The notes under the pieces are model-generated. The model did no database searches and was not told the origin of the DNA. It saw only the letters and a program-made list of their open reading frames with translations. DNA of 64,000 nucleotides from a virus. Its lineage: Duplodnaviria; Caudoviricetes. Position numbers and translations under genes: made by a program. Positions 1-19,400 of the stretch are shown here, in pieces. The stretch covers positions 96,001-160,000 of the IMG/VR virus record IMGVR_UViG_2548876794_000003. The stretch is one strand, 5' to 3'. The number at the start of each line of letters is the position of its first letter. Positions within the stretch are counted from its first letter, which is position 1.

Positions 1-4
1 TTTA

Positions 5-3000
5 TTGAACACAGGAGGATTCGACAAGTCCGCAGAAGATATGCTCAAGATGCTTAACCAAGATGATGAATCGTTGTTACAGAACATCGTTACAGGTTAC
101 AACGATTTTAATAAAGACAACTCTGCATTTTTAAATAAGAACGTATTATCGACGATGCGACGTTATGTTGAAAATCCAAAGACTGCCCTTGACCATGTAT
201 CAATCAAGAACGACTCACAAATGACCGGTAAATTATTTGGTACGGAAAATCGTTCAAGTAACTTCATTGACGAACTTCGTTTAGAGATTGAAAAAGAAGC
301 CTATATGCGACAGGCTCGTCATGTACGCACAGACGATGGGCAAGTAAACATTCGTGGACTAAGCGACTTAATTGGCGGTTCTGGTGCGCAATATGATCAA
401 GTAAGGAACGCACAAAATGTAGCTGACTTCGCTACGTTCCAATCTTTAACAGGTGTTTATAAGGATGCCACTGACAACAAGTCTGTACAAGAATCTGCCG
501 ACATGGCAGAACAAGCTATCAAGCTATTCGCTCGTCGTGAAGGTGATGACCAACGGAATGATATATCCGAACGATTAGTAAACAATGTATTAAACAAGAC
601 AAACAAATTTGAAACAAGCTATGACATCCATATGCAACAGGAGAATATCGTAGAAGGTTTTGGTAACGATGCGTGGATACACATGAATAAGGCAATTTCG
701 CCAATGGACTTGCTTCGAAACTTGAACGATAAGGAATTTAGAAAGTCATTCGTTAAGCAGTTTGTAGCTGGCCGTAATGATATGGAGAATGTGACAACCG
801 CTACGATGATGCCATATTTCTTCCTAAATCGCCTAAATGATCCGCTTGAAAAAATCGGAGTAGGTTTGTCATCTGAATATCGCGGAAGCTCTGTAGACTT
901 AATGCGTGGCATTGTAATGAAAAGAGCACTACCTATTGCAATGGGTATTACTGGCTATAACTACATGAACGACTTTTCGCAAGCAACAACAGGCGTCGGC
1001 ATTACAGAGTCGTTCTTATCGAACGCTGCGAACATTGACTTGGGTATGCGCGGTGTCGCTGATATAACAGGTGTTAGCGATTGGTTAAAAGATGAACGTG
1101 CTTTAAACCCAATTGCTCAATACCTATTCGGTGAAGAGTATATGGATAAAGATGAACGTGCTGACTACTATCAAAATGGTTATAGCGCAATGCGTAAAGG
1201 CCGTTGGTGGTCGTTCGGTTCATTAAATGAATTTAGAGGTAGCAAGGTTCAATACTGGCAACCTAATTTGTTACGTCGAGTAACCAGCGACTATCACGAT
1301 GAATCCTTGTATGATGGATTTCTTGATAAATGGAGCCACAGCTGGATGCCAACACCAACCAACCCACTATCTCCATTAAATGCGTTGATGGATCCATATT
1401 GGTTGGAAAACAAACATTACGAAGATCGACCGTATATGGTGTCGGGAAAAATGTTCACCGAAGAAACACCATGGGGACCACTGTTAAATGCGACAGTTGG
1501 TAACGTATTGAAACCACAAATACAGATGCACCAAGAACGATTGAACAGCGATTATGTCGATGTACGTGCCATTATTGAACGACGAAACAGAGAAACGATG
1601 GAGCGAGCTAATGGTGAAAATCGCAACCTTGCTCGATTCAAAGATGGTGCGATTGAAGCGGTAAACTTCACATCATATGATGCACCCACTGAATCACAAC
1701 GCATTGTTCGTATAAATCAAAGCAATGGTCAATCTGATGTCACAGCGATGAACTACGGTGCATTCACTGGCGTTACAACAGGTGAAGCGTATATGCGTCA
1801 AAAAGCAATTAGTGAAGATGCTGCAGGTGGAGGAGCTACTGGCGAATTCTTAACAGGCGTAGCAGAAGGAACCAACCAAAGGCTAGGTAACTCTGCATTG
1901 ATGGACTACGGTAGCAAAGCTGGCGGTGTTATGGACCTAATGAGCTCGATTGGCAACGGTGGCGAAATCAGTGTCGGTACTGGTTTAAGCTTCGCAGATC
2001 GTGCGGAAATTGAAGGTGCTGGTGGCAATGTTGTCGCAAAACTATTTTCAACACTACGCCGCGAAAGTAATGAATCCATGAATATCGTCAGTGACTTGAA
2101 CTATAACACGCTAATGAATACTCGTTCCTATCGGCCTAGTAACTCACACGTACGAGAGGGTGGTGTTGTAACAACAGAATCACTTTACAAAGCGAGCGCT
2201 CGTTTCGGTGATGGTATTTTGGATAATAAAGAAGCAATATCCGATTTGAAAGGCTTATCTGGCGGGGATGACATGATTGGCGAGCTGGCTTACTCTGCTC
2301 GTTTCATTACAGGTATTTATGGTTACGGTTCATTCTTAGCTGCAGGGGGTAGCGCTAAGAACAAAGTATCTGACGCAAGTGACATGACCAGTCCTATTCG
2401 TAGCTTCTGGGATGCAAACCTTGGCGGTGTTGGTGGTAACTATCTTGAAATCTTCCGTCGTTTTATTCCATCAAATAACTTCTTAGAAAACAACTTTAAT
2501 CCATTGATGAATACTATGCCCGACTGGATGCCAGATAAATATCGTTTTGGCGATCCGTATACAGCGCTCCCTAAAGGTGAAATGCGTATGCCGGGTAAAG
2601 GGTATGAATCACTTAACGAGCTGCATTCTGATCAGTATGGACGTTATGGAGCATTTGACCGATACAAAATACTTTCGGATATTTCGCCCGGTTCAGAAGA
2701 GTACAAGATTTGGCGTGATATTGCGAAGGAAACGGTCTCTAGTCCCGAACTAAAAGAAGAGATGGACCGTATTAACGATCGTGTCAAAAAGCAAAACGAG
2801 AACTATGACTTCTTCGATTATCAATTTTTAGGAAAATCCACTCGTAAAGAGAAAGTGCAAATTTCCGAAGTAATCGACAACAACTTCTTCAAAGTAGCAG
2901 GGGATGACAAAACATACAGATTAGCTGGTGTGTCGGTCACAAATAAAAACAAAAAAGACGACGCATTATCTTTAACTGATGGCACACGCGCAATTGACCA

Positions 3001-4729
3001 ATTCCTTGCACCAGGTCAAGAAGTCGTGATTTCACGAGACAAAGATACATTCGACGGCACCGACCAACAAAGCGGCGCTGTTAGTGCGGCGCTATTCATT
3101 AACGGTAAATCTGTTGGTAAAGAATTAATGGATATGGGGTATGCTGAAAAACGTGGTGACACGTCCGCTGCAGCTGCAGACAGTGTTTATTCTGCCACAC
3201 AGATTGCGCGTGGTAAGGCGTATGAAGCAATCGCCCATCTACCTATCCCTGTTTTTCAACAAAAATTCATGAAAGTACGAAATCCATTAGAATCGTATAA
3301 ACAAGAATTGGTGTACGGTACAAACTATACAAGTTGGAATCGCCCAATCGACAGTATCTTACTACCTGCTTTTGAACGTTCATTAATGAGTGACGGCGAA
3401 GTACTAATAGGAATTGGCGCAGCCGTAGCGAATCATCTCACTTATAAAATGACAGATGATAAAGCAAGCCGAGCTGTTGCCAATGTTGCGATGGCACTAT
3501 CTAATCGTGGTGCATTCATTGGTGGATTCTTAGCTAAAGGATTGAGCATACCAAACTCGCAAATTCGTAAAGCAGCCTTTGTTGGTGCTGGTGCGCAAGT
3601 TGCTGGCTACCTTTACACTCGTCAAGACCAACCGCTTCAAGAAGGCGTAATGGGAGGACTATTAGGTATGGGTGTTGGTCACTTATTGAAAGATATAGGC
3701 ATAAGAAAAGGCGGAGCAATTGGTGCCGCTACAGGCTTCCTTTTCGGTGGTATGAGTTCATCTGCTTTGAGTGACGACGCTTATGGCTTTGGCAACAAAT
3801 ACATTCCAGAACGAACTCGTGAAACTTGGGATATGCGTGAGTACTATGACCGCTTAGAATATGTTAAATACTCTGGTCTATTTGAAAAGGCTGCGCGTAA
3901 AGCGAAGCATAAAGAGCATATGGATATTGGGAAACTCGTAAAAGATTACGAGAAGCAGCGTGAAGAAAACCGTAAAGTAAATGAGCAACTTGGAGAATAT
4001 CGTCAAATCATCATGCAAGCTTACGCTCCGGGAAGTCAGCGTCGTGACCAACTGTTGAATGAAATTGATGGCAAGATGAATGTATTGAAAGAATCAGAAT
4101 TCAACATTGCAGTAGGCGACTACGCGAAATCAGCATTGATTTATAAACAAGCGATGGACTCTACCATCTATGGTCTAAAAGACGATGCTACGTGGTCTCA
4201 AATTGTACGTGCTACACCGACCAATGAGCGTGATCATTTTATGGCCTTCATGAAAGAAGCTAATCCTAAAAAACGTAAAGAGATATTAAAATATGTCTCA
4301 CCTTACGAAGCTAAGGTCTTGAAAACCGCTTGGGGTATGGAGACTGAAAAACAAGAATCGAATAGCTCTTACTTTGAACATCACCGTATGCCAGGGGCAA
4401 CATGGAGTGGGTGGCGTCCAGACAAAGACTTATCGGACATTCAAGTAAAAACTATACATAATGAAGGCCGATTGCTTTCAGACTTCGGATTCTTTGAATC
4501 ACAGCTACGTGATCCAGACGTTATCCGAGCAGACCAAGCTTCGCCTAATCAACCCGGTAGCGGCTTCCTACAGACGAAAATGGCAATGATTGCGACATTA
4601 AAAGGATATGGGCTAACTAATGTAAACGTAAACGTTGAGCCTAAAAAGGAAAGTGGTATGGAAGTTATCGCAAATGTGGCGAATATTACACAATACAATA
4701 TCCATAACGCTTTAACAAATTTACTATAA
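5..4729 (+). CDS. Giant virion or ejection-type protein, 5'-truncated by the window edge; degenerate SNase (thermonuclease) fold and Gly-rich hydrophobic segments
   Basis: Frame is open from the window start. SNase-like pattern EVIDNNFFKV..YRLAGVSV..LFINGKSVGKELMDMGYA (about 2849-3145) lacks the catalytic DGDT/DAPE/DRYGR residues. Gly-zipper hydrophobic stretches at about 3398-3760. Confidence 0.6.
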   Translation: MNTGGFDKSAEDMLKMLNQDDESLLQNIVTGYNDFNKDNSAFLNKNVLSTMRRYVENPKTALDHVSIKNDSQMTGKLFGTENRSSNFIDELRLEIEKEAYMRQARHVRTDDGQVNIRGLSDLIGGSGAQYDQVRNAQNVADFATFQSLTGVYKDATDNKSVQESADMAEQAIKLFARREGDDQRNDISERLVNNVLNKTNKFETSYDIHMQQENIVEGFGNDAWIHMNKAISPMDLLRNLNDKEFRKSFVKQFVAGRNDMENVTTATMMPYFFLNRLNDPLEKIGVGLSSEYRGSSVDLMRGIVMKRALPIAMGITGYNYMNDFSQATTGVGITESFLSNAANIDLGMRGVADITGVSDWLKDERALNPIAQYLFGEEYMDKDERADYYQNGYSAMRKGRWWSFGSLNEFRGSKVQYWQPNLLRRVTSDYHDESLYDGFLDKWSHSWMPTPTNPLSPLNALMDPYWLENKHYEDRPYMVSGKMFTEETPWGPLLNATVGNVLKPQIQMHQERLNSDYVDVRAIIERRNRETMERANGENRNLARFKDGAIEAVNFTSYDAPTESQRIVRINQSNGQSDVTAMNYGAFTGVTTGEAYMRQKAISEDAAGGGATGEFLTGVAEGTNQRLGNSALMDYGSKAGGVMDLMSSIGNGGEISVGTGLSFADRAEIEGAGGNVVAKLFSTLRRESNESMNIVSDLNYNTLMNTRSYRPSNSHVREGGVVTTESLYKASARFGDGILDNKEAISDLKGLSGGDDMIGELAYSARFITGIYGYGSFLAAGGSAKNKVSDASDMTSPIRSFWDANLGGVGGNYLEIFRRFIPSNNFLENNFNPLMNTMPDWMPDKYRFGDPYTALPKGEMRMPGKGYESLNELHSDQYGRYGAFDRYKILSDISPGSEEYKIWRDIAKETVSSPELKEEMDRINDRVKKQNENYDFFDYQFLGKSTRKEKVQISEVIDNNFFKVAGDDKTYRLAGVSVTNKNKKDDALSLTDGTRAIDQFLAPGQEVVISRDKDTFDGTDQQSGAVSAALFINGKSVGKELMDMGYAEKRGDTSAAAADSVYSATQIARGKAYEAIAHLPIPVFQQKFMKVRNPLESYKQELVYGTNYTSWNRPIDSILLPAFERSLMSDGEVLIGIGAAVANHLTYKMTDDKASRAVANVAMALSNRGAFIGGFLAKGLSIPNSQIRKAAFVGAGAQVAGYLYTRQDQPLQEGVMGGLLGMGVGHLLKDIGIRKGGAIGAATGFLFGGMSSSALSDDAYGFGNKYIPERTRETWDMREYYDRLEYVKYSGLFEKAARKAKHKEHMDIGKLVKDYEKQREENRKVNEQLGEYRQIIMQAYAPGSQRRDQLLNEIDGKMNVLKESEFNIAVGDYAKSALIYKQAMDSTIYGLKDDATWSQIVRATPTNERDHFMAFMKEANPKKRKEILKYVSPYEAKVLKTAWGMETEKQESNSSYFEHHRMPGATWSGWRPDKDLSDIQVKTIHNEGRLLSDFGFFESQLRDPDVIRADQASPNQPGSGFLQTKMAMIATLKGYGLTNVNVNVEPKKESGMEVIANVANITQYNIHNALTNLL

Positions 4730-4754
4730 GGGAGCTTCGGCTCTCTTTTATTTT
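4730..4754 (+). terminator. Intrinsic terminator
   Basis: GGGAGC-TTCG-GCTCTC hairpin (cUUCGg loop) followed by TTTTATTTT, directly after the stop codon. Confidence 0.8.
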
Positions 4755-4837
4755 AAGCGAAACTATTTCATTTTGTAGATAATAGGATAAAATACAGGAT
4801 GCATTTTAAGATGCACTATTTAAAAAGGAGGGTTTTG

Positions 4838-7800
4838 ATGGTACAAGAATCATTTTGGGAAAACAGTTCCATTAAACGATTTAATGGAAAGCGACAGAAA
4901 GCATTGATTCAAGCTCGTTCAGAGAAGTCCGCACAGGATGCACTCGGCAACACACAAGCTGGTTACAAGGCTTTAGTAAACGAACACATGAAAGCGACTA
5001 GCTTTATGTATGCCAACCAGATTAAGGATGTTGTGTTAGATAACAAGTCACCTTATAAATTCTTAATGAACACTGGTAAAACAGCATTAAAAGAAAATCC
5101 AGATGTGCTTAATTCATATGCAGATTTCTTCAATGCAGCAGCGTCCACTTTTACAGTAAAGGAGAAAAGCGGACAGAAGTTCATGGCTGAAAACGTAGAG
5201 GTCAACAAGATTTTTACGATTAATAACCAATCCCGAGGTACAGAGACAGTTTCACTTAAAGATGAAGAAGCGGCATGGAAACGTATGCAGAAAGGCGCTT
5301 ATACCGTATTTGACTTTGAAACGTTCGGTGGGCGCAATGCGTTCGGTGTGCAAACATTGGACCAACTTACAGAATATAGTTTCGAAACCTTTGACAATAT
5401 TAAAGCGAAGAAGTCGTCGAATCGTATCGAGGGCGTTGTTGGGATTACCGATGCGAAGAAAGATGAATTTATCAAAAAATTCATTGGTGGCTCACGAGAC
5501 ATACAGGACACACGTAATTTAAATGGTGGATTAATTGACTTCACTCGCTTCACTGAATTAGAGCAAATTCAATTGAATACTTTAGCTCGTATGGGTAGTA
5601 AAGAAACAACAATTTCAAATGTGGACGAACAATTCAAGGATGGTTTTAACGGGCGCTATCGCGTAACTAAAACAATCGCCAATGAAGATGTAGAAATTTC
5701 AAAAGAGAACGTACTGCGTGGGGTTGAACGTCTACATGATATTGGTACTGTACAGCGCGCAGGTTCAGTGAATGGCTTACAAGTTTGGGAGAAAGATTTA
5801 GCTGATGCGATGTCAATTGCAACGAAAGGCGACCATGTATTAACTGGTCACAACGTAGCGCAGGCCGACGTTCCTTGGTTTAACCAAACATTAACTCGTG
5901 GATCGAAGCCATTTAGGGACTATTACTTTAAAGAGTTGCAAGGCGAGTTGGTTAAAACAACTGGAGGAGCTGTATTTGATTTACTTCCACTTGCACGTAT
6001 GGCCGACTTGAATGGCGCACTCTCTCGTGAGATTGAATCAAATCCAAACGCTCAGAAGCGACTTGGCGAAATGGGTTCTACTGCATTGCAACAAGAAACA
6101 TTGGTTGCAACGACACTATCTAAAAACGTCATCGAAAATACGACGAACGCACCACATACAGCTGCAGAAGATACCCGCCTATTTAATGAGATTATTCGAG
6201 GGGGGCGCATCAATTCTTCTGATAAAGAAACTCTTGTCGAAAAAGCTTTCCGTATGGCTAAAATGAATATGACAAACGAAGCGATACCTTTGACAGCTGC
6301 TCCATCTGAACAGCAAGTGAAGGAATCTAATGGCACAACGAAAAATATTGTAATGAACGCACGAAAAGGTCTGTTCAATTATAAAGGTTTATCTGGTGTC
6401 ATTGGTTATAATGTGGACCAGATTGATGGACGTATCCGTACTTCTAATGGATATGAAATTTCTCCAGATGGCTCAGTTAAGAGTGGATTTGGTGATGCTA
6501 TCATCAAGAAAGATGTCAGCTACGTTGCACAAGGCTTACAGAAATTAACGACAGGCAATGACGATGGCATGCTAGACATCATGAAGCGTATGGGGAAAAC
6601 CGACGCACATATGGCAGAAGGTGAGCTTTACAAGCTGGTTCTTTCTCCAGTACGTGAGGGGAACATTGAACCTAGCGCTAGTACGGCATCTGAAAAAACG
6701 AACATGAAGATGAATATGCCTGTAGCTCTGCTAGGTTCCCGCGATGAAATTCAACGTTATCTAAATGGCAATATGATTGCCTTTGCTAATGCGACCGAAC
6801 AATTGGACGGCAGCGTCAAGTTAGATCCGATTGAAAGTGGAATGAAGGAACTGGCGAATTACAACACAGTTACACATAAAGTAGAAGAAACGACGCCTTT
6901 AGACGTCATTAAACGCGGTGAAAAGAAAGCATTGAATGATTCATTTAACCGTAGTATCACTGAAAGTGAACTGCCGAAGATTGAGCGATACATGAAGTTC
7001 AGCGACACTGTAAAAGAATTTGCGAAGGAAAAACATATCGACATTGGTTCAGCTCGTAATGCTGTGATGGATGGCGCTATGGAAATCGCTTATCAAGTTT
7101 CTCGTGGTCGAACAATTACGAAGGATATGCAAGATATGGTTGGGCTTGATGCCTACAATATTCTTTCCAATAACGGAAAGCATGCACTTGATTATCGTTC
7201 ACTCGACAAGGCTGCCGCTTCACTAGACTTTATCGAAAGCGCACGCGCACCATTAAATCAACTGATTCAAGGGATTAAAGGCAAAAAGTTAGGCTCCTCA
7301 AAAGAAGAGCAGTTCGTATTCAAACAAGTGATGCAAGGAATTACTGCAGAATTGAATGATAGCTTTGTGCAAGCGAATGATCCGAAATTCAAAGCAGCAA
7401 ACAAACCATACATAAGTGTCCCTTCATACGAAAAGAATGTCATTCAATTATCTCGCCCAAGCTCGATGCGCGAGAAGAATGGTCGTGTAATGGGGCTTGA
7501 TACGCAAGAGAAAATGCTGCGTATCAATTTAGATGACTCACCAGAAACAAAACTGATTAACGCTGTGACAAAAACACTTCGTCGTAAAAGCGACGGTGCA
7601 ATCAAGAGTAGATTACTTTCACTAGCGGAGGAAAATAACATCGCATTAGATGGCACAAGTGAAATGAATCGTTATCAAGTAGCTCAAACTATTGTTGATA
7701 AGATTCACACGCAGCGTAAAGTCGATCCGCTTCTATTCGCACAAAGCGGTGTGTCAGCGAACGACTTTTCTAAAGGATCAGTAATACTTAGCAGTGAAGC

Positions 7801-10800
7801 ACATGCAGATAAGATTTCCTCTTACATTGACGACTACCTATCAAAATACCAGAAGGGGACGGTTGTCGATCTAAATCATTACTTTACAAAGTCGGGCGCA
7901 CTTAATAAGAATACGTTGATCAATGACGTTGTTGACAACTTCTTAATGGACTCAAATTACAATTTAAAAGACCATGGTTTTAATGATGAACAAGTTAAAT
8001 TTCTGCAGGATTCACGTAATCTTCGCCGCAAAGATTATACGAAATATGCGGAGGAGCTAATCAACGGTGTCCATAAGTCAGGCGCAAGCTTAGTATTCGA
8101 TGCAGATAAAGGCATCTTCGGTATGACTAGAGGTGGAGAGTACACAAACCTAGCCAATATCGTAGCGCGTGACCGATTCCATAATGGTGTGTTCTATACG
8201 CAAGTCGGCAAAAACCGATTACGCACAGGTACTTACTTAGGAATGTTTGGCGCCGGTGACAAAGATGAATACGCTTTAAGTGATGTAAAAGCTGTGTCTG
8301 GACTCGGAAAATCAATGGATGCTGCGCCAGGGAATCTGGACTGGAGTATTAAACGAGCAATCGAGAATGACGATGATCCGACGAAGAGTGTGGAGCGATG
8401 GTTAAAAAATATTAATAGTTCATTGCGTGAAGGTGCAAGTGTTGATTATTTCAATGAGAAAGATATGAAAGCCCAAGGGCAATTGAATATCTCTAAGTTG
8501 ATAGATAATCTAGGCAAAGTAAAAGGCATTGAGAACATGACTGCTGACGACGAAAGTGAAATTAAAGAACTTATTTCAAGAGCTCGCAAGGACAATTTCA
8601 GTTTTAGTAAGATGACCGATTCTACAAATATGTACATGCAGAAATCAATTAGTCCATTGCTACAATTCCTAACACAGGGCGTGAAAGACGAGTGGGTAAA
8701 AGACTCTGTAAAACGTATCGGAAACCGCGTGAAATCGAGCGCCAATGAAAAAGGGAATTATGGCGTAATTGACTTTCAAACAGAACTTGAAATGTTCAAT
8801 AATGCTTCTCGTGGTATTGATGCGCAAAACAGTTTTATTTCATTTGATGAAGATACAGCGCGTAAGGCCCTATTAACACCAGATGAATATACCGGTGAAT
8901 CGCTTGATAAGCGTGTGGGGATTGGTTCCAACTTGCGTACAGAATTAGGGGCTGCTAGAGACAACATGCTTTCAGAGGAACACACCCAAAAACGCCGTTC
9001 ATCATTTGAGCTTCAACGTGCTGCCTACTCACCTGCAGAGCTACATATGAAACTAAAAGAGGCTTATTTAGCAACAGACGATCAAGCGGAACGCACATCT
9101 ATTCAGAAACTAATGAATATCGGTAACGTGACAGAGGGGGCTGCTGTGATGAACTCACGAGTAGCCGATGCGATTATTCAAGGGTATGACAAACAGAAAA
9201 TAGATTTCTCAAAAGACCTGTTCTCACAAGAATTGAGCGCTGACGTAGAATCTATGACAAAAAAGGAATCGAAAGCCTATAAGAAAAGGATGGACAACAT
9301 CTCAAAAATGGCTCCTGTGTTTAAAGACAAGGGCAATCGCGGTTTCGATTTTAATTACGGAAAAGGTTACTATGTACGTCATGGTGAAACGCTCGCAAAT
9401 GTTCGTTCCGAATACGGCAACAATGTGTCTCCAGTAGCAGCGAAGTACGATGGCTTTGCTCGTTTCGGCTTGTTCACACGAGATGGTGCTCTTGTTTCGG
9501 CAAAAGATGCACAGGAGTTTCTACGCGAACAAGCTCGTAAAAAGCAAGTAAATATCAGTAACATTCAAGAGATGATTGATTTCGCTAAGAATTACTACGA
9601 CACAAAAATGTATGTTGATAAGCTAGACATGACAACATATCGTAAAATCCAAGAAGATAATCTTGAAAAACATATGACAAGTTTTACTTATCAATCATTA
9701 GGCGCCTTAGATGACCACAGTAAACCGTCACAAGGAATTGGAGCAGCATTAGATAACTTAGGCTTAAACCATTTAAAAGGTCGTACGCTTCGTCCAGAAT
9801 TCTTTAACGAGCTACTGTCTGGTGAAGCTTATGACAGTGGTGTACTAAAGACTGCAGCAAAAGGCGGCATGGGTTATCAAAAAGCAATTCAATCGGCTGG
9901 CTTTAAAGATGAAAGTGAATTCAAGCGTCAGCTAGAGAAGGAGCGTCACTTAGCCGGTGACATCCTGCAACAAGTAACAGGAGCAGACGCAATCGTTCAC
10001 TCGGATGATGTAAGCCACAAAAACGCTGGTGCTCGTATCAAATCTGCAATTAATGATATGCACTACAACCAATTAAACGCAGTCATGGACGAGCAAGGCT
10101 TGGCACGAGCTACGCCAGAAGCTATCCGAGAAGCGTCTCAACGAGTCGTTGATGCAGTGGGCGATGCCTTCGAAATCAACGGAAAAGATGGATTGTTTGT
10201 AGATAAAAATAACCGTATAGGATTGACTGGTGGCTTCAACTACTACAACGGCGATGGCGTAAATGTAAACCGGTTAAAAGAAGCATATGATGCGATGATG
10301 CCTGGCACTGATAAACCAGAAAATCAATTTGATAACATCGGGGCTTCTAACGGTAAGGTATCACGCCATGGTTACAATCTAATTAACGACACAACCAACT
10401 TCCAAGGTACAGGACGTACAGAAGTATTGGATGACACAGAGATTAATCGTAATAAAATAGCGATGAAATCAGGATTAAAAATGACTGACCGAGAATTGAA
10501 TATGTTAGAGTTACAACGATACGATAAAGATGAATTAAGCTCTATTCGTTCCGCAATGAATGATGACGCACTATTCAAACGTGCCTTTGGCCATGTATTG
10601 AATGACAATATGGAATTAGCCGACGGCGCGCAAGACATGAAAGTACTTGGACGATATACCGACGAAATCCGTCTAAACCAATTTGCTTCTGCGGGAGATG
10701 CATTATTGCTAAATGCTGACGGTAGCCAAGCGATGCAAAATGTCGAGAGCAACCTCATTAAGTCAGCTAATGCGCTACAAAAACAAAGTGGCGGTGCCGT

Positions 10801-13429
10801 TTCGTTAGAATCAGCAAAACAATATCACTCTGTTGTTAGTAACACGCAAGCGATGCGGTTCAACAATGGCACATTGTCCTTGAATGATTTATTAGAAGAA
10901 GGTAAATCTACTGCCGATAAAAAAATGAACTTCAAAGTAGTTAGCATCGGAGACCTAACTGTATCAAACGGCAACGATGGTGAGATCATTATGAAGGATG
11001 GTAGCTCTGTTTATAACCAAAATGTAGTGATTGATATGAAAGATAAATATTTAGGTGGCGTACCAGAGCGCATGGGTAATCGTTACTTAGCTATTGGTGC
11101 TGTACCGACCTCTGTAATTGGAGATGAAGTGTTAGACAAAAATCCTCACAAAACAATCAATTCAATCGTTTCAGCTCGACAAGCAATTATTGATGGCGAT
11201 GCTGGAACAGCCGAAGCAATTGAACGGAAGAAAGAATTAATCGTTGAAAAAGCAGGGCAATTGAACGATGACTTGTCAGAAGTAGTATTCGGCAAAAAAG
11301 GTGCTATCGGGCAACTAAGCTCTTATCGTGCGCAGCACTCTGCATTCGGTAAGGCGATGCTGCAAGATACTGCTCATGCACTGAATACATACAGTGAAGG
11401 TATGTTCCCGATGCTAGATAACGTTGAAATCGACGGCAAAAAAATCCGAGACCATTATGCGCAAGGTGGTTTAATGGATGTCAAAGTATTCGGTATGGGG
11501 CATGCAGAACGACTTGGCTTATTTGACCAAGAGTATCTGGACCACATCGGCTCTACAAAAGAAGATGTCATCAAGCAATTAGAAGGTGGCGTACTTGGTT
11601 TATCTCAACGTCATCCGGCTGTATACGAAGGTACAAAGCGTTCAACATACTTTGTACTGAACCGTTCGCTAGGCGATGAAGTCATCGAAAGTGCTGCGGG
11701 TGCATTGACTGCTAAAACCGATGCCGATGGTGATAGCCCTGGTAGTGAGCTTTCATCTTACACAGATAAGAAAACAGGACGCCGAGTGGACTCATTAGAG
11801 TATGCATTAAAAGGAGGAGCTGCCGGTGGGCAATTCTCTGCAGACATTAACGAAGCTTTCCAACAGCAAAAATCAAGTAACTATATCAACGCGTATGTTC
11901 GTAACCCACACTTCCAATCGAAGCTAGATAAAGCGAACGCAGAAGCATATGATATTATTCGTGACATTGACTTAGGCGAACGAGGTGAAGCAACCGCTGC
12001 TATGCAAGATGTAGCATGGGGTAAAGACGGCTCGGAGTTGGGCAAACTCCGTCCATCGTTACCACACTTATGGAATGAAAAAGAACGTGCAGAACTAATG
12101 GACGCTAAATCAGACCTACGCAATAAAGCATTGGCTTCTTACGCAACTGAACATAACTTATCGACAGCAGACGCTCTTACTCAACTACGTGGATCTGAAG
12201 AGGGTGGCAGAAGTTTTGAACTACACGAGGACTTTATCTCTCGACAAAAACAAGTAATTCGAGATACTGGTGATGCTGCGCAAGCGGATCTATACGAACG
12301 TGCTATGATTTATGAAGATAAATCCGACAGTTTCAAAGCCGCACAGATGGGTGCATTAAAACGACAAAGCGCTGGTGAAATTAACCTTAGCATGTACAAG
12401 GCTCGTAAGCTGCGTAACCTCTCTATTAACAATGGTTATACGAATGATGAATCACGATTCCTTGAGCATGTATTCGAAGCTTCCGAAGAAGCCTTCCTAT
12501 CTCCGAAGCATAGTGATAAAATCATCGTTGAAAATCCAGACGTGATGGACCAATTCAAACGAGCGTGGGGCTCTGCTACCGGTACACCTCAAAAAGGTGA
12601 TGAAGCGGGGACAGACCTACTGAAACAATACTTCCGCGACCAGACATCAACTCGTATGCGTTGGGAGAGTGAATCTAAGGAAGTTGTTGCGACGAAGATG
12701 GACCGCGCTGCGGATATGATTCAAGAAATCTTTAATAAGTCGGAGAACGGAAAAGATTTCAATATGTTCTTAGGTGCCGTTGGTCAATGGAAAAACGGTA
12801 TTCCAACATCACGAATTGAAGATGCAATGATTGGTATGAACTCATCATCTATGATGTCGCAAGTATATGGTGCGCTCTCAGAAGGCAATGGCGACCTTGG
12901 ATGGGAAACCCGCGACCTTCAAATGCGTGAGCGTATAGAAGGAGCTTTCAGTGACTCAAGACCGCTTCAAGGTAACGACTATATGCCACCAACAGTCCAG
13001 TCGCTTCGCAGCGAGTTTTCTGATAAAATGGGTGGCGTTAAAAACCTACTAAGTAAAGTTAGTGGTAAACAAGCGGTATTTGGTATTGCTGGTATGGCAG
13101 GAATGTCAATGCTAGGCGCATTCGTTGGCGGTAATCCTTCTGAGCCAACAGGACAACATGCAGCGCAAGCCCCATCAGCCGGTGGGTATGAATCAATGCC
13201 GTTATCAGACGGCACTGGATCGGTAAGCCAAATTCCTTCTGGTCAAGGTTATGTCGTGAATGTCAACGCACAATCACCAAAAGGACAAGCACATGCACAA
13301 GAAGCAATTCGACAAGCCGTTCGACAAGCAAGCGGCGGTTCTGTCAATATCTCTATGACAACGCGAAACGAATACAACAACTTGGACAACGAAAGCGTCA
13401 CAAGTATCCTGTCAAATGCGTTTAATTAG
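4838..13429 (+). CDS. Single-polypeptide two-barrel RNA polymerase (fused beta/beta'-like) with N-terminal DEDDh 3'-5' exonuclease; probable virion protein
   Basis: AGGAGG RBS at 4826-4831 favours ATG 4838 (2863 aa). Exo motifs FDFET, GHNVAQAD, HTAAED. Beta-like motifs GNVTEGAAVMNSRV, RKIQEDNLEKH, ADAIVHSDDVSHKNAG, SGLKMTDRELNMLE. Beta'-like motifs GKKGAIGQLSSYRAQHS, QRHP, KTDADGD, ALKRQSAGEI, EEAFLSPKH. Confidence 0.8.
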   Translation: MVQESFWENSSIKRFNGKRQKALIQARSEKSAQDALGNTQAGYKALVNEHMKATSFMYANQIKDVVLDNKSPYKFLMNTGKTALKENPDVLNSYADFFNAAASTFTVKEKSGQKFMAENVEVNKIFTINNQSRGTETVSLKDEEAAWKRMQKGAYTVFDFETFGGRNAFGVQTLDQLTEYSFETFDNIKAKKSSNRIEGVVGITDAKKDEFIKKFIGGSRDIQDTRNLNGGLIDFTRFTELEQIQLNTLARMGSKETTISNVDEQFKDGFNGRYRVTKTIANEDVEISKENVLRGVERLHDIGTVQRAGSVNGLQVWEKDLADAMSIATKGDHVLTGHNVAQADVPWFNQTLTRGSKPFRDYYFKELQGELVKTTGGAVFDLLPLARMADLNGALSREIESNPNAQKRLGEMGSTALQQETLVATTLSKNVIENTTNAPHTAAEDTRLFNEIIRGGRINSSDKETLVEKAFRMAKMNMTNEAIPLTAAPSEQQVKESNGTTKNIVMNARKGLFNYKGLSGVIGYNVDQIDGRIRTSNGYEISPDGSVKSGFGDAIIKKDVSYVAQGLQKLTTGNDDGMLDIMKRMGKTDAHMAEGELYKLVLSPVREGNIEPSASTASEKTNMKMNMPVALLGSRDEIQRYLNGNMIAFANATEQLDGSVKLDPIESGMKELANYNTVTHKVEETTPLDVIKRGEKKALNDSFNRSITESELPKIERYMKFSDTVKEFAKEKHIDIGSARNAVMDGAMEIAYQVSRGRTITKDMQDMVGLDAYNILSNNGKHALDYRSLDKAAASLDFIESARAPLNQLIQGIKGKKLGSSKEEQFVFKQVMQGITAELNDSFVQANDPKFKAANKPYISVPSYEKNVIQLSRPSSMREKNGRVMGLDTQEKMLRINLDDSPETKLINAVTKTLRRKSDGAIKSRLLSLAEENNIALDGTSEMNRYQVAQTIVDKIHTQRKVDPLLFAQSGVSANDFSKGSVILSSEAHADKISSYIDDYLSKYQKGTVVDLNHYFTKSGALNKNTLINDVVDNFLMDSNYNLKDHGFNDEQVKFLQDSRNLRRKDYTKYAEELINGVHKSGASLVFDADKGIFGMTRGGEYTNLANIVARDRFHNGVFYTQVGKNRLRTGTYLGMFGAGDKDEYALSDVKAVSGLGKSMDAAPGNLDWSIKRAIENDDDPTKSVERWLKNINSSLREGASVDYFNEKDMKAQGQLNISKLIDNLGKVKGIENMTADDESEIKELISRARKDNFSFSKMTDSTNMYMQKSISPLLQFLTQGVKDEWVKDSVKRIGNRVKSSANEKGNYGVIDFQTELEMFNNASRGIDAQNSFISFDEDTARKALLTPDEYTGESLDKRVGIGSNLRTELGAARDNMLSEEHTQKRRSSFELQRAAYSPAELHMKLKEAYLATDDQAERTSIQKLMNIGNVTEGAAVMNSRVADAIIQGYDKQKIDFSKDLFSQELSADVESMTKKESKAYKKRMDNISKMAPVFKDKGNRGFDFNYGKGYYVRHGETLANVRSEYGNNVSPVAAKYDGFARFGLFTRDGALVSAKDAQEFLREQARKKQVNISNIQEMIDFAKNYYDTKMYVDKLDMTTYRKIQEDNLEKHMTSFTYQSLGALDDHSKPSQGIGAALDNLGLNHLKGRTLRPEFFNELLSGEAYDSGVLKTAAKGGMGYQKAIQSAGFKDESEFKRQLEKERHLAGDILQQVTGADAIVHSDDVSHKNAGARIKSAINDMHYNQLNAVMDEQGLARATPEAIREASQRVVDAVGDAFEINGKDGLFVDKNNRIGLTGGFNYYNGDGVNVNRLKEAYDAMMPGTDKPENQFDNIGASNGKVSRHGYNLINDTTNFQGTGRTEVLDDTEINRNKIAMKSGLKMTDRELNMLELQRYDKDELSSIRSAMNDDALFKRAFGHVLNDNMELADGAQDMKVLGRYTDEIRLNQFASAGDALLLNADGSQAMQNVESNLIKSANALQKQSGGAVSLESAKQYHSVVSNTQAMRFNNGTLSLNDLLEEGKSTADKKMNFKVVSIGDLTVSNGNDGEIIMKDGSSVYNQNVVIDMKDKYLGGVPERMGNRYLAIGAVPTSVIGDEVLDKNPHKTINSIVSARQAIIDGDAGTAEAIERKKELIVEKAGQLNDDLSEVVFGKKGAIGQLSSYRAQHSAFGKAMLQDTAHALNTYSEGMFPMLDNVEIDGKKIRDHYAQGGLMDVKVFGMGHAERLGLFDQEYLDHIGSTKEDVIKQLEGGVLGLSQRHPAVYEGTKRSTYFVLNRSLGDEVIESAAGALTAKTDADGDSPGSELSSYTDKKTGRRVDSLEYALKGGAAGGQFSADINEAFQQQKSSNYINAYVRNPHFQSKLDKANAEAYDIIRDIDLGERGEATAAMQDVAWGKDGSELGKLRPSLPHLWNEKERAELMDAKSDLRNKALASYATEHNLSTADALTQLRGSEEGGRSFELHEDFISRQKQVIRDTGDAAQADLYERAMIYEDKSDSFKAAQMGALKRQSAGEINLSMYKARKLRNLSINNGYTNDESRFLEHVFEASEEAFLSPKHSDKIIVENPDVMDQFKRAWGSATGTPQKGDEAGTDLLKQYFRDQTSTRMRWESESKEVVATKMDRAADMIQEIFNKSENGKDFNMFLGAVGQWKNGIPTSRIEDAMIGMNSSSMMSQVYGALSEGNGDLGWETRDLQMRERIEGAFSDSRPLQGNDYMPPTVQSLRSEFSDKMGGVKNLLSKVSGKQAVFGIAGMAGMSMLGAFVGGNPSEPTGQHAAQAPSAGGYESMPLSDGTGSVSQIPSGQGYVVNVNAQSPKGQAHAQEAIRQAVRQASGGSVNISMTTRNEYNNLDNESVTSILSNAFN

Positions 13430-13440
13430 GGGGAACTATT

Positions 13441-16400
13441 ATGGCATCTACAAAGACTGCTAAAGAATTAAAAGAGCTTTATGGCACGATGAATAAAGAA
13501 AATCTCATTCTAACAGATGAAGATTTCTTCTTGCCGTCCATGGGCGACATGTACGTCAATTCAGTCGATAGCGCACGATTAAATGATTTTGCCGCTTCAC
13601 TGGAAGGCAATGCAGGTAAAGACAAAATGACGAAAGCTTCGTTCTATTTGGAAAATCCATTTGCGAGCGAACTTGGCTTCTATGAAAAGAATCACCTTAT
13701 TTTTGTAAAAGCAAAGCCATTGATTACAACGCAAGATGTACTTGCGGGAAAAGTCGATGGAGACACACTGACCTTCAAGGTCAGTGCTGTCGTTGGTGAT
13801 GACGATGGCAAAGCAAAGTCAAAGATTCAAGAAGAGGTAAAACGCGGTACTGAAAAAATCATCAACGCTGTTAATGACAAGGCTTCATTAGATTTGATGG
13901 ATCGACTAGAGAGCTTAGGATTAGATTTAAGTGATCCTAAGAATAGCGAGTACAAAAAATATTTACGTGAATCAAGTGAGCAAGAATTTAAAATTCGTTT
14001 CCTTGGAATCAATGCACCAGAGGTTTCAAAATGGACACATATGTCGAATATTAATGCGGATTATTTAAAAGTCGAATTTAAAGAATACGGAGACATCAAG
14101 AATGATGAAGCACATTATTATTGCCGACGCTACGAAGGCCGCAAAGATAAAGAAGTAATTGCCTTCGTAACATTGAGTGATGCAATGAGCCATGACGACG
14201 GAATTGACTTGGGTGAAATGTTTATCGAAACGAATAGCGAATATAGTCCATTAACAAAGAGTCGTATTAAATCAGAGAAAAAATTAGACTTCTATTATTT
14301 AAATACAGTAGGTGAGACTGAGAAGAAACGTCGTGAACAGGGTGATTTAGCGCAACGACGCGTAATCAAAGCAATCAATGCTTCTGCAGATGGTTATGTT
14401 TACCTAATGTTAAACACTTCTACTTTGAAGATGGCCACAGACCGCTATGCTTCTATCTTCGATGATGTGACAGCACTGAGTAAAGGTCCTATTAATAAAT
14501 TAAAATACATCTTTAGCCAACTTGTTAGCTACAACGATTATTCATATAAAGGCTATAATATGTGGGGAACTGACGCATATAATCGTTTCCTTGGAACACC
14601 ATATGTCATTACAGACGAAGGTTACGTGAACTTAGCTAAATATGTGATTGCTGGTGACGACGAGAAAATGGTTGACGTATTTCCAGACTATGGCGATACA
14701 CCTTGGTCTGGCGTAAACAATAACTATGCCGATAAGTATTTCAATTTAGCCAGTTATGATTTTGACAACTACGCTCTATATGATGCGACGAAGGTTGCTG
14801 GCGATGATATTGATGACCGCAGAAAGGTACAAGAAGAAATCTTCGGTCGTTCATTTGATGAATTGCGAGAATGGACTGTCGGTATTGGTGACACATTCTT
14901 CTTCGTTCCACCAACAAGTATCAATGTCACGAATGAAGTATCGAATGAACGCCTACGCACAATGCGTTCTAAAGGCTCGATGGTTAAAGGTGGCACCAAG
15001 GTAGATAAGTATATCGAGCTGGACTTGTATTTCAATGACGAGCGCGGTATCAATGGCTACCCTTGGGAGACAACTTTACCAAACGGAGATAAAACTACAT
15101 ATTATATGAATGGATTACGTGCTTTAATTTCGCAATTCAAGTTCACGCCATTTCTACCAATTGAAAATCGTTACATTAATCAGATGTGTAATATCGAAGC
15201 GGTCAATTTACTAACGTTAGAAATCTCTACAGTTGAGGGTTTCCCTCGAACATTAGTAGCTCGTGTCGTACTACAAGCATTTGATTGGCGTACTTATATG
15301 CCAGATTTACCGGCAAACATTCAAATGGATGACCAGCAAGATGAAGATGAATACTTCAACATTTTCGCTAAATCAATCGACTACGCTACGATGCGCTGGT
15401 ATTACCAACGTGCTATTCGAAGAGGGAATAAAGTAGATGGTCTTGATGCAAATTCCATTAAATACATAGAAAAAACATTGGGTAGCAATACTGCATTACA
15501 ACCAATGCACTTTGAAGATTCCGGTGTGAAGTTTTACGTTGCAAACGAAGATTACTTGAAGAAAATGCTTCAAGTGAAAATCAATGCACTTGATACGTCC
15601 AAAACATACGCAGTCTTAACAGATCTTGAAAAAGAACTGTTGGTCGACTTAGCTCCTTTAGGCAAAGCTGCAGATGATGCGCTTACTGACAAAATGATGG
15701 GGCAGTACACAACGAGCTTGATCGATAAATTAAAACCAGCCAAAGATGGCCGCCTACCTGTATTAACTGCAGAGAAAGCAAGCAAAGGGTTGGTTTATGG
15801 AAAAGCGAAACTGGGTTCTCCTAAGATCATGCGAGTTGAAACAAACGGCTTTATTTTTGATGACGAGTACTTCCCAGAATATATGAATCTTGTTCAATCG
15901 AGAATGGTTGACGCATTCAAGGATGTTCAAGGGAAAGAAAAGATTCTAAACGATGTGACACCTTACTACAAAGTAGGAGATGACTACATTACGTTTGGTG
16001 TGTGTCTGGACTTGTATATGCCAGGTTTTACAACACCTGCTCAAATTACAAACCTTATTGCGGAAGCATCTACCGCTACAGGAGTGAGCCGAGATAAATT
16101 TAATTTAGTAGATGAAAAACTATATATCAGTTATCGCGTTGAATTAAAAGATAAAGTTGGTGTAAAAACAGGTATTGACCGATTCATTACAACGGATTAT
16201 GACGGAGTTATCCAATATCCTGCTTTACCAAACACAACGAAGTCGGGCTACGATTATCAGATGTTAGCTTATGCTCAACAATATAAAAAAATCAAAGACA
16301 GCGATGAAGACACCCCGAACGAAGAAGTTGCTGATACAGCGAAGAATGTAGATTACATTAGTCCGTACACTTTGACTTATGATCAATATGAGATGGGCCA

Positions 16401-19400
16401 TGTGACCGTTCAAAATATTTCTGTTAGTACAACGAACAGCTTTATGAAGTATGGACTGAACGGTAGCGAAGGTTACGCCAGCCAGTACATGGGTTCAGAA
16501 GATTCTATTATTGAAATCACGCTTCACTCAATGGATGAATATGCAGTGGGGATGATTAATCAAATGACGTCGCTTCAAACACGCTACGCTCGTGATTACC
16601 GCTTGATTCTTCCAGCCTGCCCATTCCGAATTGATACAGAACTGACACGAACACTTGGGATTAATGAAATCATTTTAGATAAGGTAGAAGTAAGCACTGT
16701 TGCAGGAGCGCCGGGCTTATACGACATACATATTAGTGCTATCTCAATGGACCGTACTTTGCGTAGCCGAGAAGCATTAAACAAAGTGAACGATTGGACG
16801 AACAATGGTTCTATTGGTAACGATAACGCAACAGAGCTTAAATTGAAGTCTTATGACAATTTAAACGAAACATTGGCTGCGGCAGAGTTATATCCAGACC
16901 TTGAATTGCCAACAGTGAAAGAACTTGAATCGAAAGGATTTAACTTTATTCGTCATGTATTCGACAGAGATCGAAGTTATCCAGATCCCGATTTCTATTT
17001 CGTGTATGGGTACTTACTACAAGCAGACGTATTACGAGATGCTGTTTCACAAGCGTACGAGCAAAGTATTGCTGAGTCTACTTGGACTGATGAATACGGC
17101 GGTTCTGTTGAGCTGGAAACAAATAAGGAATTTGGGTACATCACTAAAAAAGAAGGCAAGAATACGAAAGACTTGCACGAAAGTATTAGTAAAGTTGAGG
17201 CAGCTGCAGATAAATCGAAGAGTGTCACAGAATACGTTAATAGTGGAGAAGCCTTAATTGATATTATCCAGTCTGCAGAGGATGCAGAAGGTTGGAGCGT
17301 TTCACCAAAAATACGTGTGCTAGGAATCGACCAGTATCATCAAGATTTATTGCACAGAGATGATGCAATGAAGAAAGGTAAGACAGGCGAGGAACGACAA
17401 GGCAAGTGGTTATCAGAACGAATGGATGAAGCAAGAGAAGCAAGTAAGCTAATCAAAGCCGCTTTAGATAAACCACTGTCAAGCATTGGTCAAGCACATG
17501 ATGCTCGTAAAGATGATGACTTTACTCGTCGTTTTAGTGACCGCGTAATCAGAGAATGTTTGAACGAGGACTTTGGCGATGCTCTCGCGAAATTAAATTT
17601 CTCTGCAGAAGAATTTACGGACAGCGGATCGCAGACAGCAGATTCATTCATCAAGATTTTAAAATCAATCGCTACAGCATTTAGCAGTAAAAAAGAGTGG
17701 ACTAAGAAGGCCGGTAAAGATGGCGACGCTAATTTTAAATATTTAGGTTACGCAATTGATACTGATACGAACAGCTCTGGTAATCGTTCTGCCGCTTCGA
17801 TTGATGATGCTGTTGAGAATGGCGTAGAGTTTTCTGTTTTCGGATTAAAAATGCTGAAACGCAAAAAGCTTAAAAAGCTTGAAGTATATGGCGAAATCCA
17901 TAAGCGTGTAGACGATGATGTAAGCGTGAATATGAACTATTACACGTTAGATCCGTACTACCGTCGTGAAGGTGTAACAGCAAAAGAAATTGAAGAGTAC
18001 AAGCGCGCGTGTTGTACAGATTACACTGTTGCAGCGCAGGCTTTCGTTCGTAATACGATGCTATTCCTTGCAAAAGCAATCGACGAATACATCTTCCCTA
18101 ACATTACATTTGACTTGATGGCCAGTGAACTTCGCGAAGCAATGAAGAGTGTAGAGAATAAGAAACTAGCAGATGAAATCAATGATTACGAAGATTTCCT
18201 TAATGACGAGGATAGACCAATCAATGCTGGTAAGTTATTTATCTGTTCATTAGCTGCAGCGACCAATTCACAAAAAGTTCTGGAGTACGTGAAGCAAGGT
18301 CGATATGAGGACTTAAATCAAATGGTTTACCAGTCTATTAATGAAAAAGGTACGGAGCTTTACGACAATAGCGAAGCAATCTTCTATCGTAAATTCTTCC
18401 GTAAACTAGTTGATTACAAAATGATTGATAACCTCGGAGCAGTAGGGAACGACGATAAGAACATCGTAACGGATCGACGTCGTGAATATCGTGAACGTGT
18501 TTACATTGAAGCGGCGAACAATCCTAGCGAATACATTACGCACTCGTTCCACGATATGACTGTCAATGATATGCGTGGGCGTATGGCTAGAGCATTTCCA
18601 ACGTTCTATATGTTGTTAGTAGATGAAGGGCGACGAATTGGTCTTTGGAAGCTACATGATAACTTCTATAACATCAACTCTATTTCTGAAATCGCAATCA
18701 CAAAATCTCGTAAGAATCCTGCAGACACGATTAAGATAACGATGTCCAATATGTTCCATACATATACAACGGATGACGAAGATATAAAAGTAAATTTTGA
18801 ATATGACTATCGAGATGTATTCAATTCTATCTTTAACTCCGAAGCTTACTACGAAAAAGAAGAAGCGAAGCGAATGGGGCAGCAACCATTGAATCGCGCA
18901 AAATTAAAACCTGGCATTCGTATGCATGTGCGTATGGGCTACAATTCAAACGCAGCCACTTTACCAATCATGTTCAACGGTAGAATCGCTGAGGTGTCAG
19001 CTGGCGAAACAGTTGAAATTGTAGGGCAAGGTGATGGTGTTGAGCTATTAAATACGATTTCCGTTCAAGAGTCTAAGTCCCTTAACCAAGGGAACGGTAA
19101 GCTATGGCTGTACTCAAAAGTAGATGGCCAACAAACGCCAAAAGAAATATTCGACAAAGTACTATGTAATAAAGGTACGATGACGTCGCGCGCCTTAGAT
19201 ACTGTATCGAATGGTTACTATCGTTCATACAATGAATACGGAATTGTTCACTTTGGCGATCCACGTTACAACGTTATATTCGAAAATGGTGAGCCATCAC
19301 AAAATATCTATGAAGCGACTACTCAACCTAAATGGTATAAGGAGCAATCTAAATCAGCAGAATATGGTTTAGAGGAGCCACCACAGATCAGCATCATGAC

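Follow-up and report, generated by a model that had tools for sequence, protein, structure and literature searches.

A DEDDh exonuclease domain joined to a probable two-barrel RNA polymerase core in giant tail-module proteins of uncultured large phages

RNA polymerases (RNAPs) that are carried in the virion are, to our knowledge, known only from N4, crAss-like phages, phiKZ/AR9-like jumbo phages, and P23-45, and none has been described with a nuclease of the kind reported here. The subject of this work is a 64,000-nucleotide stretch of DNA (hereafter, the window) comprising bases 96,001-160,000 of the linear, 178,960-bp IMG/VR virus record IMGVR_UViG_2548876794_000003, whose completeness is estimated at 78%. 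In this window, a single giant gene located among contractile-tail genes encodes a DEDDh-type 3'-5' exonuclease domain and, further along the same polypeptide, a probable single-chain, two-barrel RNAP core. The locus represents a known domain type and a known infection strategy brought together in an undescribed, conserved architecture.

One close described counterpart is gp96 of the Thermus phage P23-45, a virion two-barrel RNAP that is fused to the tape measure (PMC10770324). Like the protein described here, gp96 is a giant tail-gene product, and its single-chain, two-barrel RNAP (bioRxiv 10.1101/2022.12.01.518664 / PMC10770324) has its likeness in the probable core reported here. However, the RNAP is N-terminal in gp96, whereas here the probable core lies behind the exonuclease at amino acids (aa) ~1440-2430; no sequence similarity between the two proteins was found, the host and tail type differ, and the gp96 paper mentions no exonuclease or nuclease. 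P23-45 also has a second, non-virion RNAP (PMC10770324). Another counterpart is gp66 of the crAss phage phi14:2, which is also large, belongs to the virion module, combines both barrels in a single chain, and is flanked by large, co-packaged neighbors (bioRxiv 10.1101/2020.03.07.982082). No exonuclease domain has been described for gp66, it has no detectable sequence similarity to the protein reported here, and its phage is a podovirus of Bacteroidota. As judged from the genes, the window likewise encodes a giant protein within a virion/tail module, of the kind exemplified by gp96, gp66, and N4 gp50.

Nucleases and other hydrolases are associated with polymerases in several more distant systems. 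In coronaviruses, the nsp14 ExoN is a DEDDh exonuclease functionally tied to the RNA-synthesizing nsp12 but, unlike the fusion reported here, it is a separate protein, serves a palm-type RNA-dependent RNA polymerase, and acts on RNA during genome replication. In archaeal PolD, as described in PMC4996933 and PMC6355029, a two-barrel core (DP2) is paired with a 3'-5' exonuclease (DP1), a likeness to the present fusion that is limited by DP1 being Mre11-like and a separate subunit, and by the enzyme being a DNA polymerase. Finally, the beta-like subunit of AR9-type Bacillus jumbo phages is fused to an HD phosphohydrolase (PMC7824862), and this provides a precedent for a hydrolase on a phage two-barrel RNAP, although that fusion differs in hydrolase family (HD rather than DEDDh), in belonging to a multisubunit RNAP, and in its C-terminal position. 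The first-pass annotation of the window knew of no described RNAP-DEDDh fusion, and none was found in the gp66, P23-45, crAss comparative, or jumbo-phage survey papers, nor in full-text literature searches.

The gene and the parts of its exonuclease domain are located as follows, with residues numbered from the first ATG of the open reading frame (ORF):

4799-13429, plus strand: giant ORF encoding the exonuclease-RNAP fusion protein; open for 2876 codons, with a likely product of 2863 aa from the ATG at 4838.
5297-6241, plus strand: DEDDh (DnaQ/epsilon-like) 3'-5' exonuclease domain, aa ~167-481, family-specific insertions included (AlphaFold2 model, structure search, and profile).
5306-5329, plus strand: ExoI motif VFDFETFG, with D172 at nucleotide (nt) 5312 and E174 at nt 5318; D and E invariant in all members of the family.
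5438-5785, plus strand: approximate family-specific insertion, aa ~214-329, following core strand 3 and ending ahead of the pre-ExoII helix (modelled secondary structure, at model residues ~65-180, together with the nine-sequence alignment described below and the spacing in epsilon).
5843-5878, plus strand: ExoII motif TGHNVAQADVPW, with N352 and with D357 at nt 5867; its core is GHNVAQAD, with H351 at nt 5849 (alignment).
6152-6175, plus strand: ExoIII motif PHTAAEDT, with H453 at nt 6155 and D458 at nt 6170; the "h" subtype, H-x4-D (alignment).

The true start of the gene is probably the ATG at 4838, because a strong ribosome-binding site (AAGGAGG, 4825-4831) lies six bases 5' of it and the database copy of the fusion protein (P0002) is 2863 aa long. 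Residue numbers counted from the ATG at 4799 are lower by 13 for this likely real protein.

The coordinates of ExoI, ExoII, and ExoIII were all given exactly by the first-pass annotation, and the three motifs reside in one ORF, in the same frame as the RNAP-type motif DADGD (aa 2308-2312, nt 11720-11734). The large insertions it had noted between them are also real: the gap from ExoI to ExoII is 183 aa, as compared to ~89 in the epsilon subunit of DNA polymerase III (Pol III), and that from ExoII to ExoIII is 96 aa, as compared to ~59. The domain is ~100-150 residues larger than epsilon, with most of the extra sequence located between core strand 3 and the pre-ExoII helix. In the structural model, this insertion (of approximate boundaries) is made up of helices, a small hairpin, and one disordered loop. 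A 31-residue Pfam match to AcrIIA4 within the insertion (aa 276-306, nt 5624-5716) was rejected as a chance hit, scoring 18-19 bits against a cut-off of 27 and occurring, of nine members, in the protein of the window alone.

The bare five-residue catalytic pattern with these spacings carries no significance on its own, appearing in 1227 of 3000 shuffles of the protein, while the motifs in their usual context (hydrophobic-x-DxE[TS]xG ... G[HYFQ]NxxxxD ... Hx[AS]xxD) appeared in none of 3000. The significance of the pattern must therefore come from conservation and fold, both of which are strong. An exhaustive HMMER scan with aa 138-524 against 1.84 billion cluster representatives yielded 39 proteins, nearly all of them 2,660-3,150 aa long and matching at the same N-terminal position; an enlarged family of 43 is similarly uniform in length (nearly all 2,660-3,175 aa). 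In the 39-sequence alignment, D172 and E174 are each found in 39/39, N352 in 36/38, D357 in 37/38, H453 in 36/36, and D458 in 35/36, and the 43-member set gives the same picture. Taken together, the five catalytic residues and N352 are kept in ~36 of 38 full-length members at identities of 20-35%, and the exonuclease core is conserved to the same degree as the polymerase active site. ExoII had originally been defined by H351 and D357. The aspartate is indeed a conserved catalytic residue, but position 351 varies across the family (H/Y/F/Q) and is non-catalytic; ExoII conservation lies in N352 and D357. Two further conserved stretches, a D[ST]L-like "vfDtL" and a "sQEaL", agree with the epsilon sequence from ExoII to ExoIII.

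A clean, nine-sequence alignment of the exonuclease domain, consisting of the query and eight fetched homologous loci, was used as input for AlphaFold2, while an alignment of a 387-aa query with full-length homologues was not folded, the query tail having been pulled to distant columns. The resulting model is confident (predicted local distance difference test, pLDDT, 85.8; predicted template modeling score, pTM, 0.85). Its best structural match in VIA-align is Pol III epsilon (1j53_A; Z 12.3, root-mean-square deviation (rmsd) 3.0, 169/174 residues, model residues 18-332), followed by Exonuclease I (Z 11.4), the exonuclease domain of PolC-type polymerase (Z 11.2), the DinG exonuclease domain of S. 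aureus (Z 10.8), the TREX1 homologue Plex9.1 (Z 10.8), Cas2-DEDDh (Z 10.3), the defence-associated DEDDh exonuclease Cap18 (Z 10.2), and, lower, T4 DexA (8kel; Z 8.9). RNases scored a little lower in the search (Z 9.2-10.2), and all 50 of the 50 best structural matches listed are DnaQ-like exonucleases. These families also make up the Foldseek list, where the E-values are weak owing to disruption of the alignment by the insertions. The region thus has the RNase H-like fold that was looked for, as well as near-invariant catalytic residues and epsilon as its nearest structure, and the DnaQ-type DEDDh signature originally proposed for it holds.

Sequence profiles point in the same direction, albeit less forcefully. 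The top match of the nine-sequence profile against the Protein Data Bank (PDB) was the TREX1 homologue Plex9.1 (E 0.008), with the three motifs collinear, followed by RNase T and TREX1. Pfam scans of nine homologues gave one match to RNase_T (E 0.0014) and two to DNA_pol_B_exo1 (E 0.0029), all under cut-off. The fusion protein of the window had no match to PF00929 at E<=1; neither the whole protein nor its N-terminal 600 aa gave an exonuclease or RNAP match when scanned against Pfam, NCBIfam, and PHROGs, and phmmer searches of PDB sequences with the whole protein or the exonuclease region returned noise only. Every DEDDh feature of sequence and fold that was checked is present, apart from a Pfam match above the curated cut-off. 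Like the rest of the Pol III epsilon/DEDDh group (ExoI, PolC exonuclease, DinG exonuclease, TREX1, and RNase T), it has the common fold and an ExoI DxE, an ExoII NxxxxD, and an ExoIII HxxxxD in the same order; it differs from epsilon in lacking a PF00929 match and in its ~100-150 inserted residues. Epsilon, moreover, partners a DNA polymerase, whereas the domain described here sits on a giant tail-module protein with RNAP-type motifs, and DnaE is encoded by a separate gene 46 kb downstream, which is not the setting of a replicative proofreader. It is almost certain that the product of nt ~5297-6241 is a genuine DEDDh 3'-5' exonuclease domain of the DnaQ/epsilon type, with its full set of catalytic residues, fused in one polypeptide to a probable RNAP core.

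The polymerase part of the protein is marked by two sets of motifs:

9644-9670, plus strand: candidate beta-like barrel, K1616 ... E1623-K1624, with lysines eight codons apart; present in nearly all full-length members, fold not confidently modelled.
11609-11734, plus strand: beta-prime-like barrel, R2271-x-P2273 ... D2308-A-D-G-D2312, with the metal-binding loop (motifs and weak fold matches).

The RxPxxYxxS...DxDGD arrangement parallels the beta-prime barrel of RNAPs, whose beta barrel has its counterpart in the lysine pair spaced by eight residues. RxP ... DxDxD (aa 2271-2312) is kept in ~37 of 38 full-length members, and K1616 and K1624 are nearly invariant; the part of the model that contains these lysines has a pLDDT <50 and is covered by no fold match. 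The AlphaFold2 model of aa 1570-2430 as a whole is poor (pLDDT 64, pTM 0.35, catalytic loops <50), and fold matches to it are indicative only. Nonetheless, the Foldseek matches listed for this region are all RNAP largest subunits (beta-prime), with the AR9 non-virion RNAP first (E 0.027), and VIA-align places model residues 455-799 on beta-prime ~24-491, ending just past the catalytic loop, at Z ~6 (maximum 6.3) and an rmsd of ~15. Generic double-psi beta-barrel (DPBB) folds match model residues 655-791, and the DPBB and beta-prime matches together cover 655-799. BFVD yields weak matches as well, to a "minor tail protein" and to RNAP subunits of phages and giant viruses.

Sequence-based searches with this part of the protein were negative. 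The profile of aa 1570-2430 found nothing among PDB sequences and, in hhalign, showed no similarity to the phage's own YonO-like protein, which itself has no Pfam match. Likewise, profiles of aa 495-1050 and aa 1040-1580 found nothing in the PDB, and the ESM Atlas gave only leads <0.9 for the other parts of the fusion protein. It is likely, although less secure than the exonuclease label, that the C-terminal part is a single-chain, two-barrel RNAP core, as its motifs and weak fold matches indicate. Of the fusion to RNA polymerase that was claimed at the outset, the single polypeptide is well supported and the RNAP identity is the softer half.

The joining of the two domains is a fixed property of a family of ~40 sequence clusters, all of them from uncultured large phages. 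Profile hidden Markov models (HMMs) of the exonuclease domain and of the RNAP region (aa 1570-2430) were run on 38 full-length members, and both regions were detected in 37, including four members that had been retrieved via the polymerase profile alone. The remaining member (P0027) gave no match to the small RNAP HMM, and a forced alignment shows its K..EK, RxP, and DFDSD. Nearly all members retain the exonuclease residues jointly with those of the polymerase (K1616, E1623, K1624, H1740, R2271, P2273, and the DxDxD at 2308-2312); in the apparent exceptions, P0027 and P0042, the motifs are present on inspection, while in P0043 ExoIII is present and ExoII was not found by pattern. The acidic residues, together with the histidine, are thus retained among homologues. 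Nor does a stop or frameshift separate the exonuclease from the RNAP, either in the 38 full-length homologues or in contigs from four other studies (manure, bird, faeces, and wastewater), which were aligned to nt 4700-13500 with no indel and two of which span the whole gene. Of the substitutions checked for strain variation, 35 of 39 are synonymous and 4 non-synonymous.

A telling member is P0008 (2692 aa), which from end to end shares 47% identity with P0005. In this protein, the ExoII aspartate is replaced by glycine and that of ExoIII by asparagine, and the K..EK, RxP, and aspartate loop (DxDxD) are all lost. This double loss suggests that the two activities are kept or discarded together, and P0008 looks like a doubly dead copy of unchanged size, perhaps with a structural role alone. 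Because the domain is invariant across the family at 20-35% identity, and is lost only with the polymerase site, we infer that it serves a core step of infection rather than a patchy, accessory one.

Public sequencing runs of manure, bird, faecal, wastewater, and soil samples, generated by 11 studies, contain near-identical copies (~99.4%) of nt 4700-13500; the uncultured phage is therefore widespread in animal-associated waste. Several other searches for relatives were negative. For example, tblastn with the whole protein and with its N-terminus found no match in 50,697 GenBank phage records, a word-indexed homologue search with the exonuclease or RNAP region returned only the fusion protein itself, and a single-protein search for related loci in viral contigs and genome contigs gave nothing. 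Moorella phage MTATph1 and Bacillus phage 0305phi8-36 were both negative with the exonuclease and RNAP profiles, and a DEDDh-RNAP fusion was found in no cultured phage.

The surroundings of the gene and the C-terminus of its product include three further features of interest:

2-4729, plus strand: upstream giant ORF, of which the C-terminal 1575 aa lie in the window (2148 aa when complete); it keeps its place beside the fusion gene in relatives.
13070-13132, plus strand: glycine-zipper-like hydrophobic segment, aa 2758-2778, near the C-terminus of the fusion protein (hydropathy scan and family consensus).
13441-21615, plus strand: downstream giant ORF, 2724 aa, with an endolysin-like region (phrog_20474, E 7e-183); also syntenic with the fusion gene in relatives.

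Genes run in the order terL, portal, protease, major capsid, a 1012-aa tail sheath, small ORFs, and then the 2148-aa, fusion, and 2724-aa ORFs; the fusion gene thus lies among contractile-tail genes, between two other giant ORFs. This giant-ORF trio is syntenic in all eight of the eight relatives fetched (contigs of up to 247 kb). The downstream 2724-aa product matches phrog_20474 "endolysin" over aa 1944-2404 and, weakly, DUF6046, and may be a tail-associated lysin or hub protein. The segment at aa 2758-2778 of the fusion protein is its one strongly hydrophobic stretch, is conserved in the family, and may be a membrane-inserting element. The C-termini of the 2148-aa (4600-4729) and 2876-aa (13270-13426) ORFs possess a common short motif (GYGLTNVNVNVEP and GQGYVVNVNAQSP, respectively), followed in each by an N/I-rich tail, while BLAST detects no similarity between the two proteins; the motif could be a common assembly or targeting signal of these adjacent giant proteins.

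Elsewhere, the record encodes RecJ and a DnaE-type Pol III alpha subunit with a PHP domain (DnaE at 59725-62961 of the window). Apart from the diverged domain of the fusion, the 179-kb record, which is 78% complete, yielded no PF00929-type exonuclease. ORFs of at least 200 aa are on the minus strand from 2 to 64 kb of the record, except for one at 26.7-32.7 kb, and nearly all on the plus strand from 66 to 178 kb, such that both gene arms point outward, with the switch near 65 kb. For DnaE, phages of Moorella, Geobacillus, and Bacillus give the best matches. In one relative (L003:6476-9867, a 238-kb contig from an NCBI assembly), five reverse-strand genes separate the exonuclease-RNAP gene from the first giant ORF, and these include a RapH_N/TPR protein and a weak AimP/Phr-like peptide gene. 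These Rap/arbitrium-like genes hint at a Bacillus-type host and a communication system and, together with the DnaE matches, point to the Bacillota as the group to which the host of the phage probably belongs.

By analogy with P23-45 gp96, crAss gp66, and N4 gp50, and in view of the position of its gene, the fusion protein is probably carried in the virion and ejected with the DNA. Our leading, although tentative, proposal for the exonuclease is that it would resect the 3'-ended strand of the genome end entering the cell, and would thereby hand a single-stranded template to the adjoining, sigma-less RNAP. This idea of template preparation was put forward because the nearest characterized analogues transcribe single-stranded, and not native double-stranded, DNA. 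Specifically, crAss phi14:2 gp66 prefers single-stranded templates in vitro (bioRxiv 10.1101/2020.03.07.982082), and the same preference has been reported for QDE-1. With this geometry, the first transcripts would head toward the genome terminus, and the outward orientation of the genes on both arms is the orientation that such resection requires. The nearest structures and profile matches are DNA exonucleases, suggesting a mild preference for DNA over RNA as the substrate. A more doubtful elaboration is that the exonuclease and polymerase would constitute one machine that replaces promoter melting, with the RNAP anchored in the membrane by the C-terminal glycine zipper and transcribing the exposed strand toward the terminus.

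Several considerations weigh against resection of the entering end for the benefit of the polymerase. Beyond a conserved exonuclease domain joined to a probable polymerase in a tail-module protein, we infer all of it, and the RNAP identity is itself weakly carried, by motifs and by fold matches of Z ~6. The preference for DNA over RNA corresponds to Z gaps of 1-3 and to weak profile matches, and ~1,000 residues separate the exonuclease from the polymerase core. Resection would also destroy one strand of the early region, and we know of no phage that does so. The argument from gene orientation is weak in a record of 78% completeness, whose ends need not be the true ones. Finally, P0008 is the one example of the double loss, and its gene could simply be in decay.

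An unlikely alternative is that the domain is a transcript-directed RNase that trims the 3' end of nascent RNA, rescuing backtracked or misincorporated complexes or shaping 3' ends, and so standing in for the Gre/TFIIS-assisted cleavage of cellular two-barrel RNAPs. The analogy here is the coronavirus nsp14 ExoN, whose partner RNA polymerase is an unrelated one. Many DEDDh enzymes are indeed RNases, with RNase T, oligoribonuclease, 3'hExo, and CAF1 all matching at Z 9-10, and the exonuclease and polymerase sites are strictly co-conserved and are lost together in P0008. However, the best structural and profile matches are DNA exonucleases, and high fidelity is hardly needed for early transcripts. 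The distance in sequence between the two domains counts here as well, and nothing puts the exonuclease site near the secondary channel of the polymerase.

Less likely still is a role in genome-end processing that is independent of transcription, whereby the 3' strands of direct terminal repeats would be resected and the ends would anneal to form a circle or concatemers. The resemblance to DNA exonucleases fits this role, as does the presence of RecJ in the phage, and a tail-module protein would be the first to meet the DNA end. A precedent for suitable ends is the Bacillus jumbo phage 0305phi8-36, whose genome is non-permuted with a 6.5-kb terminal repeat (PMC3357382). Yet such processing leaves both the constant fusion to a polymerase and the joint loss in P0008 unexplained, it presumes terminal repeats in the present phage, and 0305phi8-36 itself has no detectable homologue of the fusion.

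It is also improbable, and slightly more so, that the domain is a host-takeover or anti-defence nuclease that degrades host DNA or RNA, or defence nucleic acids, and is merely carried into the cell on an ejected protein. Delivery ahead of the DNA would suit counter-defence, and the fold matches include T4 DexA and Cap18. Modules of this kind tend to be patchy, however, whereas this domain has intact residues in essentially every member of a highly divergent family; moreover, only a few copies would be delivered per cell, and the AcrIIA4 match is sub-threshold and confined to one member.

A distinctly remote reading is that the two-barrel core is a DNA or primer polymerase, with the DEDDh domain as its proofreader in the manner of PolD or, in a variant, as the proofreader of the phage DnaE. 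PMC4996933 and PMC6355029 do describe two-barrel cores that are DNA polymerases with exonuclease partners, the best fold match of the domain is the replicative proofreader epsilon, and DnaE is present in a record that yielded no second PF00929-type exonuclease. Against this, the gene resides in the tail module and not in the replication module, a PHP-domain DnaE is already encoded by the phage, the exonuclease of PolD is of the Mre11-like and not the DEDDh type, and a DnaQ gene could sit in the missing part of the record. Finally, that the domain is a catalytically silent, structural remnant is hardly credible: P0008 keeps it despite the lost residues, but nearly all full-length members retain the five catalytic residues and N352 at low identity, and strain-level changes across the ORF are overwhelmingly synonymous.

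A strictly conserved and apparently active exonuclease on such an RNAP would mean either that an additional nucleic-acid processing step takes place at the onset of infection or that a two-barrel RNAP has, for the first time, a dedicated exonuclease partner. If the proposed replacement of promoter melting is true, it would amount to exonuclease-primed initiation of transcription, which is not known for any RNAP. Members of the family occur commonly in metagenomes of manure, faeces, and wastewater, and yet are missed by standard annotation libraries. Either outcome would bear on how sigma-less, single-chain polymerases, including the related eukaryotic polymerases of RNA interference, are supplied with template, and would show how very large phages of Gram-positive bacteria start gene expression.

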